Shown here in pieces: positions 1,636 through 55,300 of a stretch of 64,000 nucleotides of DNA. Source of the DNA: Chiloscyllium plagiosum (Eukaryota); assembly GCF_004010195.1 (NCBI RefSeq), contig NC_057719.1:11910002-11974001 (forward strand). The letters are read 5' to 3'. The notes below the pieces were generated by a model. That model saw only the letters and a program-made list of their open reading frames with translations, made no database searches and was not told the origin of the DNA. The first letter of the stretch is position 1. The number at the start of each line of letters is the position of its first letter. A program made the position numbers and the translations under genes.

Positions 1636-3392
1636 CGCTGAAAATGTGTTACTGGAAAAGCACAGCAGGTCAGGCAGCATCCAAGGAACAGGAGAATCGA
1701 CGTTTCGGGCATAAGCCCTTCTTCAGGAATGAGGAAAGTGTGTCCAGCAGGCTAAGATAAAAGGTAGGGAGGAGGGACTTGGGGAAGGTGGAGGGAGGTC
1801 AAGGTGAGGGCGATAGGCCGGAGTGGGGTGGGGGCGGAGAGGTCAGGAAGAAGATTGCAGGTTAGGAAGGCGGTGCTGTGTTCGAGGGATTTGACTGAGA
1901 GAAGGTGGGGGGAGGGGAAATGAGGAAACTGGAGAAATGAGGAAATTGGAGAAATTGGAGTTCATCCCTTGTGGTTAGAGGGTTCCCAGGCGGAAGATGA
2001 GGCGCTCTTCCTCCAACTGTCGTGTTGCCATAGTCTGGCGATGGAGGAGTCCAAGGACCTGCATGTGGGAGGGGGAGTTAAAGTGTTGGGCGACGGGGTG
2101 GTTGGGTTAGTTGGTCCGGGTGGCCCCGAGGTGTTCTCTGAAACGTTCCGCAAGTAGGCGGCCTGTCTCCCCAATATAGAGGAGGCCACATCGGGTGCAG
2201 CGGATGCAATAGATGATGTGTGTGGAGGTGCAGGTGAATTTGTGGTGGATATAGAAGTGTCCCTTGGGGCCTTGGAGGGAAGTAAGGGGGGAGGTGTGGG
2301 CGCAAGTTTTGCATTTCTTGCGGTTGCAGGGGTAGGTGCCGGGAGTGGAGGTTGGGTTGCTCCCCCGCCCTTGAGCCCCGCCCCTCCAACCGCCACCAGG
2401 ACAGAACCCCACTGGTCCTCACCTACCACCTCACCAACCTCCATATACAGCGTATCATCCNNNNNNNNNNNNNNNNNNNNNNNNNNNNNNNNNNNNNNNN
2501 NNNNNNNNNNNNNNNNNNNNNNNNNNNNNNNNNNNNNNNNNNNNNNNNNNNNNNNNNNNNNNNNNNNNNNNNNNNNNNNNNNNNNNNNNNNNNNNNNNNN
2601 NNNNNNNNNNNNNNNNNNNNNNNNNNNNNNNNNNNNNNNNNNNNNNNNNNNNNNNNNNNNNNNNNNNNNNNNNNNNNNNNNNNNNNNNNNNNNNNNNNNN
2701 NNNNNNNNNNNNNNNNNNNNNNNNNNNNNNNNNNNNNNNNNNNNNNNNNNNNNNNNNNNNNNNNNNNNNNNNNNNNNNNNNNNNNNNNNNNNNNNNNNNN
2801 NNNNNNNNNNNNNNNNNNNNNNNNNNNNNNNNNNNNNNNNNNNNNNNNNNNNNNNNNNNNNNNNNNNNNNNNNNNNNNNNNNNNNNNNNNNNNNNNNNNN
2901 NNNNNNNNNNNNNNNNNNNNNNNNNNNNNNNNNNNNNNNNNNNNNNNNNNNNNNNNNNNNNNNNNNNNNNNNNNNNNNNNNNNNNNNNNNNNNNNNNNNN
3001 NNNNNNNNNNNNNNNNNNNNNNNNNNNNNNNNNNNNNNNNNNNNNNNNNNNNNNNNNNNNNNNNNNNNNNNNNNNNNNNNNNNNNNNNNNNNNNNNNNNN
3101 NNNNNNNNNNNNNNNNNNNNNNNNNNNNNNNNNNNNNNNNNNNNNNNNNNNNNNNNNNNNNTGTGGGAGTCGGTTGGTTTATAGTAAATGTCCGTGTTGA
3201 TTCGGTCGCTCGAGATGAAATGGAAAGGTCTAGGAAGGGGAGGGAGGAGTCTGAGACGGTCCAGGTGAATTTGAGGTCAGGGTGGAAGGTGTTGGTAAAG
3301 TGGATGAACTGTTCAACCTCCTCGTGGGAGCACGAGGCAGCGCCGATACAGTCATCGATGTAGCGGAGGAAAAGGTGGGGGGTCGTGCAGTG
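1636..3392 (-). mobile_element. Penelope-like retroelement (RT plus GIY-YIG endonuclease), spanning a gap
   Basis: LRYIDDCIGAASCSHEEVEQFIHFTNTFHPDLKFTW at 3.25-3.37 kb; CNRKKCKTC...[29 protein letters not shown] at 2.1-2.35 kb; hammerhead-like terminus at 1695-1730. Confidence 0.9.
2461..3161. other. Assembly gap (N run)
   Basis: Run of N. Confidence 1.
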
Positions 3393-4459
3393 GGCAGATG
3401 AGCTCCTGGGTCAACCTTCCACTCCACTGCTACCTTGAAAATTTATTGAATTTTCCATATGTCTGACTTGAACCATTTTGCAATGTATTTTACATTAAAG
3501 AATATTTTTGCAAAAATGAACAGAGGAGTGATTGCCCATTTCCTCATAGGGGCTTGGCATTGTGCAATTTAAATTTAGGACAAGCCCCCGGCTTAGCTGT
3601 AGGAGCCTTGTGGACCACAATTCCAGAACTATTGGCCTAGATTATGCACTGAAGATGACTCTGATTTGGGGCTCAAATCTACAAGTTGAGCAAAAGCAGA
3701 CAAATTGTTCTGGATGTGGTGACAGACAACTTCCGGTCTGCAGCTGGGCAGCAAAGTCTGTGTTCAGCCTCGAGGTATTTAGTGGATCTCTCAAATACAG
3801 GGGATGCTCCAAATAATTAGCTGATGAGTGTTCACTGAATATAAAAGCATGCAGGCTCTTAGAGCCAGACAGATGCCGAACAGTAACACTGCATGAAATA
3901 ATAATTTAAAAGAAACTGCAAAGCTGCATCTTTAAAGCACATGTAGTCAGTCCTGACAATGACCTGCTGAAACAGTTTTGAGGAATAATGTGGAAAATAG
4001 CACTGTTTTATGAATCACTCAACTTTATTGCGAAACATTGCACTTTGTACACCTCAATCAAGTCACCCCTAAACCTTCTTTTCTCTAGTGAAAACAGCAG
4101 TTTTGAGGAATAATGTGGAAAATAGCACTGTTTTATGAATCACTCAACTTTATTGCGAAACATTGCACTCAGTGATGCAATGTAAATTGTTAGAGAAAAG
4201 ATGAAAGAGCTCAGGAGATTAATTGCATACAAATGTTTGCAAAGTATTATCAGCTGGTCGAGGGGCCAGGACAGTTTCGACATGCAAACACATACACACA
4301 AATATGCAGAAATTAAACAAACAGAAGATTAACGTGGTTTCACAAATTGAACTGGAGAAAGCTTGGACAGAGATATTCCACTTCTTGTAACAGAATATTT
4401 CATTCTTGTTGAATGCCCAATGCTGAGAAAATTAAATAGAAAACAGCTGTTAATTCACT

Positions 4460-52300: not shown

Positions 52301-55300
52301 GAACTTAAGGGTTTAAAAACAGTTGAATGCCTCTGCAAGGATAGTCAACACCAAATGCAGTCTAAGGATTGGGGGAAACAGATGTAATTCAATTCTCATT
52401 TTGAAGTCTCACATTTTCCCATTGTAAGTCATTTGGTCCACATTTAGAATGGAAACTACTGAAGTAAAAAACCATGCTGTAAAAATAGTCTGATAGTGAT
52501 AGCATTGTCGTAATCCCATTATCAGGAGACCAATTAGAGCATACATTTTCATTACAAATGCAGATGCAGGAATGCATAGAAACCCTGACTGGAAATGGGC
52601 AAAAAAAATCATCATTGTCTGATGCGAACATACCCGAAGTTAACATTTTCGGCATCAACATCTATAATACAATTTACACTCACTTTTCTTTGTGGTCAAC
52701 TTATTTTTACTTCAGAAAAATCTTTAAAATTTGTTTGATTTGGAATTGGCCCGTAAATTGCTTAAAATTTGGCGACGTGATTATTAATAAAGATACATAG
52801 TCTTATATATTTAATCAAAGGTTTGCAATATTCTAGAACCATCTTGTGTTTTAAAGAAAATGCACAAATTAACAGAATTAACTTTGCACCCTAAGTTCTC
52901 ATTACCAATGCAAACCATTTATTATTTAGTGTCATATGCCTCATCTTCCTCCTTGGGACCCTCCAACCACACGGGACCAATGTGGATTTCATTCGTTTTC
53001 TCATTTCCGCTCCCCTCACCTTATCCCAGATCCAACCTTTCAACTCAGACCACCCGCTTGACCTGCACCACTTATCTATCTTCCTTCCCATCTAGCTGCT
53101 CCACCCTCAACTTCATCTACTTATCGCATGCTCAACTACCTTGCCCTCAGCCGCACCCGCGCCCCTCCCACTTATCTCTCAGACCCCCAGCCTACAAACC
53201 TCATTCCTGATGAAGGGCTTATGCTCATAATGTCAATTCTCCTGCTCCTTGGATGCTGCCTGACAAGCTGTGCTTTTCTAGTACCCCACACTTTAGTATC
53301 ATCCCCAGATTCAAATAGTTAATTTCCTTTAAAATCCAATAGTTTTCACGTTTTACCCATCTTATCTCTTCATTTGAAATTTTAGATCGATAATTTGTTG
53401 ATCCTATAAAAAAGGTAATGAGCTCTCCCTATTTTTGGCATGATTTTTAAAAAATCGCTACAACCATCTATCCAGTGGTAACAGTTCCAATATCTCAAGA
53501 CTGTTTATCCATTGTGACATCCTAAGTAGTACACAAATGGCTTTAATATCTCTAAGACAATGTTACACCAAAAAAGTAAACTATACTTGAATTGTGGCCA
53601 AATCATTGTTCATTACGTGAAAATACACCTATCACAATTCTGGATAAACGTGCAACTGCATCCCTACATATGCCTCCCTCAGCAATACACTTCAGACTTT
53701 CATTGTGGATATTCACAGGCTTTTTCTTCCAAAAATGAAATATTACAATACTACACAAACCAATGGTCTGCTTTCTTTTGCCAAAAAGCTTCAATGTTGG
53801 AAAACAGAAATAAAATGTGAAAATGACTCTCAGCATGAATCGCTACTCTGACTGAAACAAAATTGTTGGAAAAACTCAGCAATTCTGGCAACATCTGTGG
53901 AGAGGAAGCAGAGTCGCAGTTTTCTTAGGAAGACTATAAAATCATTACCAAATAATCAGTTATTATTAGAAATACAGAAAAAGGAATATATTTTCCACTC
54001 CATCTGAATGGTTCTGGAAGACTCTTGAAGGTTATTCAATCCTTTAAGACTAATCCACCATTTGATATGTCGTCATGCCATGAACTCCAAACTATTAAAA
54101 CACAAGATGCAATGAAGTTCTAGGATATTTTCTACTGTTTCATCTCCAGCAACGTAGTTCAACACAAACACGGAGCTCAAAGCCGTGTTGGCCAAAACCT
54201 GTGCCAATGGTAATAAAAATTAAAAAGCACAAACCTGTTATAGCTACTCAATTGAAACTAATCTACACACCAGAACAAAAACAAAGTCAAGGACACAACC
54301 TTGAAGACTCCAGGTGACCGAAAACTCTGCAACTTCAAATATAGTGTGTTGATTGTGTGAATGAGTCTATGGCAATGCATATTGTAACTAGAAGGTTGGT
54401 GGGATTAAAAAAATTAAACCAATCCAAGTTCTAGAGAACAAATGTTTTATGTAAAAGCTTCCAAAGAGAAGCTCTGAAACCATTTTTATATTGTACCAAA
54501 CTAGAAAAAAAATGAAATTATTGCTAACAGTAGGAAGAGGAGTACAAAATAGAACATAGTTTAATGGTCCTATCTTGAGTCTTTATGGTCTACTAATGTG
54601 ATATGGGAAAGGGAGCAGGAAGATCACTCATCCAAGATGGCAGAACATAGAAAATCTTCTAAAGCTCCAATATTTCTCCTTCTCACAGGAGAGAAATTAA
54701 TTGATACATAAAAGATTAAATTGAAATCTGAAATTTTAATTTGAAATGTCAACTCAGTTTCTATCTCCCGGCCTAAGCATTTCCAGTTTTATTCATTTCA
54801 TACAACTGCCTTCATTCAATTTTCAATATTTCTGAAGAACAGGAAACACCTTCAGAATTAAAATGGATTTACCAAACTACCATTCAGAAGGGAGTTACAA
54901 ACTCAATTATCTTTGGTTCTCAAGTGTTTCCTAACTTCACTCCTGAAAGTCTGAAAATTAAATCCACAGGTCTATGTTCCTGTGTTCCTTCTTCCTAGAT
55001 TCCCAACTATTTATCCAACCAGACCCTAGAAATACCTTAACTTTGATCAAATAACCACTTACTTGTAATTTCAGAGTGTATAACTCTTAAAATATCATTC
55101 TATTAAATTTACACCATATCTCCATATCCTTCCTAAATACAGTACTTTGGATGCGCACTGTGACTTTGAACAGCATACATTTGTACTCTGAAAGCTAGAA
55201 TTTCATAAATTTCTTTTATCTGTTCATGACATTTTAATGATCCACGAGTGTGGATCTCAAAGTCTCTTTGGGCATTTAGTTTTCCTTTTTACTGGTGGTT

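Follow-up and report, generated by a model that had tools for sequence, protein, structure and literature searches.

The 64,000-nucleotide stretch of Chiloscyllium plagiosum DNA that we analysed (the window) contains a poly(A) polymerase alpha-like gene on the reverse strand at 22363-61759, with approximate end points set by where the presumed last exon starts and by the furthest upstream of the exons located. The gene was identified from exon candidates by Pfam PAP_central (E 2e-14) and by poly(A) polymerase alpha in the PDB (E 2e-15). Among 257 stop-free frames of at least 62 amino acids, GIY-YIG was the only Pfam domain above its cut-off, the host gene being found from short exons. Most of the hammerhead relics described here lie in the introns of this gene.

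A direct check of the window letters found the hammerhead sequences of the initial annotation where it had placed them. Both strands were scanned with a descriptor consisting of CUGANGA, an optional extra base, helix II of at least 3 bp, GAAA, helix III or a palindrome, UH, and helix I of at least 2 bp. This gave six matches (C3 at 1726, 11214, 23736, 31923 and 37822 on the minus strand and 24328 on the plus strand) against a mean of 0.07 and a maximum of 2 in 200 dinucleotide shuffles. The extra base after A9 and the palindromic ACGU proposed earlier are present in all six, as is a G10.1-C11.1 pair. The core (CUGANGA, GAAA and NUH) is wholly element-derived in five of these matches, and 13 other relics are decayed or truncated. 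The total of 19 relics in 63,076 non-N bases corresponds to one per 3.3 kb; it excludes weak nhmmer matches at 16302, 6265 and 38873 (E 0.011-0.1) and merges 40981 with 39877. An earlier estimate was about one motif per 5 kb; whole element-derived cores occur only once per ~12.6 kb (5 of 19). Rfam covariance models returned no hammerhead family among 14 window matches at E <= 5, nor among three matches in the 6 of 19 relic loci tested. Tandem hammerhead units were absent from the window: none of its seven tandem arrays (periods 16-26 nt) lies at a motif, none of the 19 relics is in tandem, and the nearest intact pair on the same strand is 5.9 kb apart.

The group termed family A includes a 5'-truncated copy at 1636-3387 on the minus strand, interrupted by an assembly gap (2461-3161) and flanked by a 10-bp direct repeat (1626-1635 and 3388-3397). 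It retains a reverse transcriptase (RT) fragment with a YIDD motif (3163-3386, minus, by tblastn), a CX4CxxC linker and GIY-YIG endonuclease (EN) with two in-frame stops (1939-2358, minus, by Pfam and translation), and a minimal hammerhead at 1695-1730 (minus) with an intact core, a U.U in helix I and a predicted cut at 1699/1698. A second family A subfamily copy at 37742-38598 (minus) has a stop-free linker and GIY-YIG frame (38107-38598) with a core-intact hammerhead downstream (37791-37826, minus), and a copy at 52938-53290 (plus) comprises the end of the EN frame, the 3' UTR and a decayed hammerhead (53203-53238). The order in family A is RT, CX4CxxC linker, GIY-YIG, 3' UTR, hammerhead and an end of ~100 nt, with the motif 213 and 282 nt behind the endonuclease in two copies. 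The order is the same in L006, an unrelated element from a metagenome, with the motif 172 nt behind EN.

The GIY-YIG matches scored 22.8-24.7 bits against a cut-off of 22.6, and Pfam gave no match to the 60- and 38-residue RT pieces alone. By tblastn, the RT fragment matched the RVT_1-bearing proteins P0005-P0007 at 42-55% and P0002 at 93%; the RT and EN fragments line up collinearly along full RT+EN proteins, and the best protein match, at 88% identity, is to a protein of Chiloscyllium punctatum. Endonuclease-bearing Penelope-like elements (PLEs) are defined by a YxDD-containing RT with a GIY-YIG C-terminal to it, as found in family A, and a CX2-5CxxC linker before GIY-YIG separates Neptune and Nematis from Penelope and Poseidon (PMC8557442). 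The linker is present in both family A EN copies and in five of the six relatives listed. The family A relics are the tail of a Neptune/Nematis-type PLE bearing an endonuclease, an assignment that does not tell Neptune from Nematis. The earlier proposal of Penelope-type minimal type I hammerheads in the shark is thus supported by the RT and GIY-YIG that remain upstream. In addition to the C-terminal GIY-YIG and linker, the relics share with these elements (PMC8557442) 5' truncation, an inverted 5'-truncated arm and a one-sided tail of 30-40 bp. Unlike them, they are present as fragments only; the window holds no full-length element or tandem pLTR-ORF-pLTR unit.

Other family A ends are shorter. 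The head-to-head pair at 11090-11370 contains a core-intact hammerhead with GUU at 11183-11218 (minus), which had been called decayed and in fact passes the descriptor, and a second one decayed at CpG sites at 11274-11309 (plus). A further pair at 23613-24354, built around an assembly gap, is bounded by a 15-bp target duplication (23598-23612 and 24355-24369); its minus-strand hammerhead (23705-23740) has an intact core with one G.U in helix II, and its plus arm stops at U16.1 (24354). Single insertions include an end truncated inside the hammerhead (15929-16010, minus, 10-bp flanking repeat), a 132-nt insertion beginning 3 nt before helix I (16514-16645, minus, 12-bp target duplication), an end truncated in helix II (47520-47654, plus, 13-bp target duplication) and a decayed end nested in an insertion inside family C (40467-40594, plus). 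The ACGU palindrome of the 16514-16645 insertion has been lost through a CpG change, and the 47520-47654 insertion includes, on its 5' side, 14 nt in inverted orientation.

Family B is represented by a palindromic insertion at 31816-32041, with two 98-nt arms, a 12-bp target duplication and a 30-nt tail on the left arm only. Its hammerheads lie at 31887-31926 (minus, core intact) and 31965-32004 (plus, decayed). Stem II begins with an AUG, from which a frame without stops runs to the element end, and two ends fall 70 and 101 nt downstream in an AC-rich stretch. This layout (the comparison is of layout, not sequence) is close to that of Poseidon PAc of Anolis carolinensis, in which the cut is 26 nt after the AUG, compared with 28 in family B, and reverse transcription starts 111-118 nt into the ORF (PMC11167929). 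Family B here has no RT or EN, and no ORF in the window ties it to PLEs. By its inverted arms, one-sided tail and target duplication it has PLE anatomy, and it is a separate PLE family, represented here by an inverted end alone.

Family C, a head-to-head pair at 39748-41025 with a 16-bp flanking repeat, has an intact core in neither arm, and the GUU of its earlier reconstruction occurs in neither (left UUU, right AAC). The right arm is interrupted by an insertion of ~1.06 kb. The independence claimed for this family does not survive either, as A and C have a common 3' flank (74% over 82 nt, E 7e-6). The same flank occurs in group D, which the initial annotation lacked: a head-to-head pair with both cores decayed, likewise new (51810-52040), a decayed relic at 12356-12411 (plus, nhmmer E 1.7e-4, non-seed) and a relic truncated at the GAAA box at 53863-53922 (minus, nhmmer E 2e-8, non-seed). 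C and D are sister subfamilies of A.

Head-to-head pairs account for 5 of 14 insertion events. Flanking direct repeats are at least 12 bp long in five of 13 spans (null P for at least 12 bp = 0.001) and 10 bp in three more; spans 37742 and 53900 have repeats of 7-8 bp only, and no repeat of at least 7 bp was found for three (the 11090 pair, 40468 and 52938). Taken together, families A-D display the signs of PLE insertion, namely an inverted 5'-truncated arm, a one-sided tail and a target duplication.

The helices are less regular than first described. In three of the four named family A copies (1695, 23705 and 37791), AUUC and GAUU form 2 bp, a U.U mismatch and 1 bp, not the complementary helix I that had been claimed; B and C have 3 bp. 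Only the 24324 copy has a fully paired helix I, and it is a hybrid of element and host: U16.1 (24354) is the last base of the element arm, after which comes the 15-bp target duplication, whose other copy lies at 23598-23612. Part of the A/U variation noted in family A derives from host DNA. In context, the family A helix I has a pairing probability of ~0, and competing folds were 3-6 kcal/mol more stable than the hammerhead in all five copies folded. An intermolecular helix III duplex of the ACGU palindromes is worth only -1.7 kcal/mol, and the motif is sequestered in the three head-to-head pairs folded.

Compensatory changes across at least three families had also been proposed. The helices do differ, but the window holds two independent lineages (A/C/D and B) plus sub-lineage differences, and covariation is significant once unrelated metagenome lineages are added, not from the window families by themselves. 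Across 11 metagenome lineages, helix I pairs 2-4, which the search pattern left free, are Watson-Crick in 22-26 of 33 cells compared with 10 after permutation (p <= 5e-4). The 15-row alignment gave a covariation score of 0.46, reached by none of 500 shuffles, with slid controls at 0.02-0.13. G10.1-C11.1 is G-C in all 15 rows (fixed by the pattern in the 11 metagenome rows), and helix I pair 1 is unpaired in seven. A and B agree at every catalytic base despite their differing helices I and II. Decay of the relics falls on CpG sites, with changes in 9 of 48 CpG cells against 2 of 80 core cells outside CpG (p = 0.002). Outside CpG, the core has changed slightly less often than the 3' flank (2/80 against 12/120, p = 0.049); this difference could point to selection, but we do not take it as such, because copies were chosen for their core and subfamily differences are included in the flank.

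We conclude, with a probability of roughly 0.85, that the motifs are minimal type I hammerheads of the PLE pseudo-LTR (3' end), spread as passive by-products of retrotransposition. Reverse transcription would begin ~70-110 nt 3' of the motif and in most cases end early, often with a second arm in inverted orientation; most insertions would therefore be little more than a hammerhead. In the parent tandem transcript, two motifs would pair through their ACGU palindromes to build helix III and cleave 3' of GUC, a reaction expected to be weak and probably aided by the element's protein. As for the dispersed copies, whether single or palindromic, they are most likely inert and decaying neutrally. 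Neither the absent tandems, nor the folded pairs that sequester the motif, nor the RNA ends give evidence that they cleave: among 3,236 RNA reads (poly(A) single-cell library, ~2% of one run), no read ends pile up at the cut site. We considered and rejected a splice acceptor (pyrimidine tract and AG) immediately 5' of the motif, as none of the joints listed (15 of 85) supports it.

It is unlikely, though not far-fetched, that the short copies, rather than resulting from random 5' truncation, form a non-autonomous family of SINE or retrozyme type, beginning at the hammerhead and multiplying through RNA of its own. Three insertions bounded by target duplications start at or inside the motif (16514-16645, 15929-16010 and 47520-47654), RNA depth is ~1,900-2,300 over the motif compared with ~14-70 over the 3' UTR and ORF, and loose read ends with heterogeneous flanks gather at 1730, the first helix I base. 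Retrozymes have moreover been proposed as PLE derivatives (bioRxiv 10.64898/2026.07.22.740005). However, the 5' ends form a continuum through helix II, core, helix I, 3' UTR, EN and RT, no tandem hammerhead array is present, the short copies are 80-93% like the autonomous tail, and the read ends at 1730 may reflect no more than divergence of the 3' UTRs between subfamilies at that point. Animal non-LTR retrozymes are likewise short non-coding hammerhead units related to pLTRs, with one chondrichthyan genome reported (bioRxiv 10.64898/2026.07.22.740005; see also PMC7229834); they are defined by tandem units, unlike the single or head-to-head shark copies.

A distinctly less probable reading is that the motif, of hammerhead ancestry, is kept as a protein-binding or reverse-transcription signal for which cleavage is unneeded. 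The interrupted helix I of family A and its more stable competing folds are in keeping with this, as are anole PAc, in which hammerhead mutants had no effect on insertion in vitro and no RNA-seq ends were seen at the site (PMC11167929), and Naiad PLEs, which thrive without the motif (PMC8557442). Against it, the catalytic bases do not vary even though helices I and II do, unrelated lineages show covariation in helix I, and protein-assisted cleavage of the anole motif has been demonstrated (PMC11167929).

We give little credence to the further idea that the hammerhead cuts during the shark PLE life cycle and that the genome records this, with cleaved RNA as template. At 24191-24354 an arm without a tail breaks off one base before the scissile C17, ~60 nt ahead of the point at which other tailless arms end, and several of the contig joints listed for a DNA run, of unspecified kind, fall at 1696-1699. 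The host target at the end of this arm matches the element at five of seven bases, so that microhomology is the plain alternative. Should arm ends prove to be concentrated at the cut site across the genome, they would amount to a fossil record of cleavage in vivo.

It is very improbable that the intronic copies on the sense strand (37822, 31923 and 23736) cut the poly(A) polymerase pre-mRNA as co-opted regulators: all three motifs are core-intact, but two have an antisense arm in the same transcript (the B hairpin is worth -187 kcal/mol and the 23613-24354 arm duplex -350 kcal/mol), the copies are kilobases apart with the weak helix III noted above, and sibling copies decay at CpG. Chance resemblance in a purine-rich hairpin repeat, for which the missing Rfam matches and the non-independence of copies of one repeat might speak, is contradicted by the descriptor counts against shuffles, by the same core in unrelated A and B with different helices, by the published position behind a GIY-YIG frame and by covariation at unselected helix I positions, and carries practically no weight.

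Architecture, dispersal and opposite-strand pairing have all been on record since 2014, when minimal hammerheads were found in the pLTRs of metazoan PLEs, including Xena, Poseidon and Neptune of fish (Cervera & De la Pena, PMC4209133). As there, the core in the shark is of type I and lacks helix III, with an extra nucleotide separating 9 from 10.1, G10.1-C11.1 and a 15.2-16.2 palindrome; there are several families with covarying helices per genome, mostly as single dispersed copies, with opposite-strand pairs 100-700 bp apart. The Schistosoma families have helix II of 7-8 bp and helix I of 4-5 bp (PMC4209133), unlike the 4 bp and 2+1 bp of family A. Cleavage as dimers is attributed to Lunse et al. 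2017, as cited in PMC6466107. What the window adds is a shark instance, sharks being unnamed in the consulted part of PMC4209133, and an unusually high local density.

Read data also support the great abundance claimed earlier for the shark, although summed contig depth in runs X1 and X16 is not a copy number. If the window is typical, there would presumably be on the order of 1e5 copies, extrapolating from the genome size that we assume. Such a density, if genome-typical, would far exceed the ~4,000 motifs of coelacanth and ~9,000 of Xenopus (PMC4209133). With so many copies, the long-open question of what PLE hammerheads do would become directly testable: insertion ends could be mapped against the cleavage site in the many copies with target duplications, which could reveal their action in vivo. 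For annotation, the motifs are repeat relics, not host ribozymes. The family B palindrome attracts spurious microRNA matches (MIR7725, mir-873 and mir-1323), which we rejected since they score below gathering and arise because of the long palindrome.

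A hammerhead descriptor applied to both strands gave six matches, with position C3 at 1726, 11214, 23736, 31923 and 37822 on the minus strand and at 24328 on the plus strand. The motif letters quoted in the initial annotation were present at their coordinates, and the shared architecture it proposed is seen in all six matches, each with CUGANGA, one extra base, G10.1-C11.1, GAAA and a loopless ACGU. An Rfam search of the window at E up to 5 returned 14 matches, none of them a hammerhead. A search with a profile of 11 copies from the window produced 21 matches at E up to 1, of which 18 were retained at E ≤ 0.0025; merging two pieces of one interrupted arm left 17 relics (11 of family A, 2 of family C, and 4 of a previously overlooked group D), and the two family B arms brought the count to 19. 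The density of about one per 5 kb claimed earlier is surpassed when all 19 relics are counted (one per 3.3 kb), but the whole element-derived core is found in only five, or one per 12.6 kb.

Helix I of family A had been described as complementary, which is so only in part, for the third pair of AUUC/GAUU is a U.U mismatch in three of the four named copies. The 24324 copy owes the perfect look of its helix I to a 15-bp host duplication, which adjoins the end of the arm at U16.1 (24354) and has a second copy at 23598-23612. The copy at 11184, labeled decayed, has an intact core. Neither family C arm has an intact core, and the GUU of the reconstructed family C occurs in neither. Family C was presented as independent of A; its 3' flank is common with A (74% over 82 nt), as is that of group D. 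Given this common flank, the independent lineages in the window number two, A/C/D and B. The helices do differ yet pair between A/C/D and B (helix I, C-G vs A-U and U-A vs C-G; helix II versions among window lineages, GGGC/GCCC, GGGU/ACCC, and GUC/GAC), and these compensatory changes come from the two lineages plus differences between sub-lineages.

The proposed origin from Penelope-like elements (PLEs) was borne out by reverse transcriptase (RT) and GIY-YIG remains upstream of the family A motif and by the PLE insertion layout. On its upstream side the motif at 1726 is preceded by a CX4CxxC linker and GIY-YIG endonuclease that scored 22.8-24.7 bits in Pfam (cut-off 22.6); still further upstream, across a gap of 701 N, is an RT fragment with YIDD. 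The order of the pieces is collinear with full RT+GIY-YIG proteins. A copy of a second subfamily carries an endonuclease frame without stops (38107-38598), and the top of its best 10 protein matches is a Chiloscyllium punctatum protein (88%), which supports the shark origin. The endonuclease-to-motif distance is 213 and 282 nt in the two family A copies. By the linker criterion in PMC8557442, the sequence of this linker groups family A with Neptune/Nematis and not Penelope/Poseidon. Head-to-head pairs account for 5 of 14 insertion events (11214/11278, 23736/24328, B, C, and D), and among 13 spans tested for exact flanking repeats, five had 12-16 bp and three had 10 bp (null probability of at least 12 bp, 0.001). 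Family B, with two 98-nt arms, a 30-nt one-sided tail, and a 12-bp duplication, has the PLE layout as PMC8557442 describes it. An AUG at the start of its stem II opens a frame; the cut position comes 28 nt after it, and the two ends are located 70 and 101 nt downstream. This arrangement is like that of the anole Poseidon element (PMC11167929), though no more than a likeness. The motif is part of a PLE end and has spread with truncated and inverted insertions.

Older PLE fragments of the endonuclease and linker region, with no recognizable hammerhead, lie at 28198-28662 (minus) and 62062-62561 (plus). In the 37822 copy, a 49-nt duplication, 98% identical (38059-38107 and 38714-38762), lies on either side of the endonuclease frame, and one unit of this duplication breaks into the element just past the stop codon. 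Assembly gaps at 2461-3161 and 23938-24160 both fall within young PLE copies.

Metagenome contigs were scanned with a pattern that specified the core and three helix II pairs but, in helix I, no more than the first base. This gave 19 loci with similarity to the window confined to the ~30-nt motif; at one, L006, a GIY-YIG frame lies 172 nt upstream (43%, E 1e-28). Helix I pairs 2-4 were Watson-Crick in 28 of 42 cells from 14 distinct motifs (permutation mean 12.4, p 5e-5), compared with 10 and 12 of 42 at control positions, and collapsing to 11 lineages left 22-26 of 33 vs 10 (p ≤ 5e-4). Alignment of four window copies with these 11 lineages gave a covariation score of 0.46, reached by 0 of 500 shuffles, and slid-partner controls gave 0.02-0.13. 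Helix I pair 1 is unpaired in 7 of the 15 rows. Selection therefore acts on the hammerhead structure across these element lineages taken as a class, a statement that does not extend to individual shark copies. A C.U mismatch occupies the first helix I pair in lineages L002, L007, L008, L012, L015, and L016, followed by 3-4 Watson-Crick pairs in L002, L007, and L015.

The architectural features, genome-wide dispersal, covarying families, and opposite-strand pairs in the initial annotation all appear in PMC4209133, for fishes, coelacanth, and Xenopus. Our literature search found no paper on shark minimal type I hammerheads, and no shark is named in two of the three supplements of PMC4209133. A 2026 preprint (bioRxiv 10.64898/2026.07.22.740005) describes hammerhead-bearing retrozymes in one chondrichthyan; its supplements and file 1 of PMC4209133 may already list shark motifs. 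The shark PLE hammerheads are a further instance of the known minimal architecture.

Comparison of the eight family A copies spanning the core with the majority base found changes in 9 of 48 cells at CpG positions vs 2 of 80 in the non-CpG core (p = 0.002), and the palindrome, itself a CpG, is lost in four of the eight. Such CpG-biased change is what neutral decay of methylated DNA looks like. The 3' flank was changed in 12 of 120 cells (p = 0.049 vs the non-CpG core), a small difference that is confounded by how copies were selected. Inverted pairs folded into hairpins of -152 and -187 kcal/mol, in which helices I and II both had a probability of 0, and a further pair into an arm duplex of -350 kcal/mol; the motif is predicted to be sequestered in these folds. 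In single copies helix II formed with probability 0.3-1.0, helix I did not form, and the hammerhead fold lay 3-6 kcal/mol above the best fold. The intermolecular helix III was worth -1.7 kcal/mol.

Reads from four sequencing runs were aligned to 1400-2460 at 85% likeness, with run X22 contributing none. In RNA run X21, 3,236 of 12.96 million records matched, in both orientations, at a depth of ~1,900-2,300 on the motif and 3' flank vs ~14-70 from 1796 on (3' UTR and ORF), and 96% of reads continue into dissimilar sequence. The short end is thus highly abundant and is read as a passenger that other transcripts carry. Read starts and ends in X21 had no pile-up anywhere, a weak test for 5'-OH/cyclic-phosphate ends in a poly(A) single-cell library. 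The unique flank recurs in DNA run X1 with a single difference over 258 nt, and the run therefore comes from this species or a very close relative. Loose read ends cluster at 1730 and 1633-1652, and several X1 contig joints link the motif's first base (1729-1730) to 1696-1699, within 3 nt of the predicted cut. In three copies (1750-1790, 37835-37870, and 53170-53200) helix I is preceded, at a distance of 10-25 nt, by a pyrimidine tract that ends in AG, resembling the intron end beside helix I in Drosophila virilis Penelope; none of the read joints listed supported splicing there.

According to PMC4209133, minimal hammerheads are inactive as monomers and of low activity as dimers. We consider it likely, at roughly 85%, that a tandem transcript of the parent element could make a double hammerhead and would then be cut after GUC, the dispersed copies being inert. 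That the abundant short copies are instead a self-propagating non-autonomous family is unlikely; in the window, intact motifs do not occur in tandem (the nearest on the same strand are 5.9 kb apart) and no tandem array lies at a motif. It is more doubtful still that the motif is a non-catalytic signal. PMC11167929 reports that cleavage by the anole motif requires the protein of the element, that insertion in vitro proceeds without the motif, and that no RNA-seq ends mark it.

Most relics lie within introns of a minus-strand gene that resembles poly(A) polymerase alpha. Its exon candidates start at 61759 and finish with a presumed last exon (61687-61759, ~60790-60900, 60489-60573, 46846-46965, 46544-46653, 42305-42426, 35445-35554, 34392-34461, 29090-29164, 28803-28859, and from 22363), the last of which we take to encode the protein's C-terminus, with poly(A)-signal candidates at 20777-19165. 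Three intact motifs lie on the gene's sense strand, two with an antisense arm; the motif is very improbable as a co-opted regulator, and nothing suggests co-option of the intronic copies. Hammerhead resemblance by chance has a negligible probability: against the six descriptor matches, 200 block-wise dinucleotide shuffles averaged 0.07 and never exceeded 2.

Enrichment of insertion ends at the cut site, one lead worth following, is a long shot. An inverted arm ends at 24354/24355, a single base short of C17, the predicted scissile position. Element and host target agree there at 5 of 7 bases, and at the family C tailless end at 14 of 16, so the position of tailless ends may be due to microhomology.

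The family B palindrome (31848-32043) was rejected as a microRNA, its Rfam matches to MIR7725, mir-873, and mir-1323 being sub-threshold; it is a source of false microRNA calls. An exact 72-nt direct duplication is found at 3973-4044 and 4098-4169, 125 nt apart. An abundant SINE-like family, which presumably resembles the shark HE1 SINE, is present at 10839-10970, 14805-15015, 16999-17205, 30922-31145, 46254-46448, and 62791-62983.
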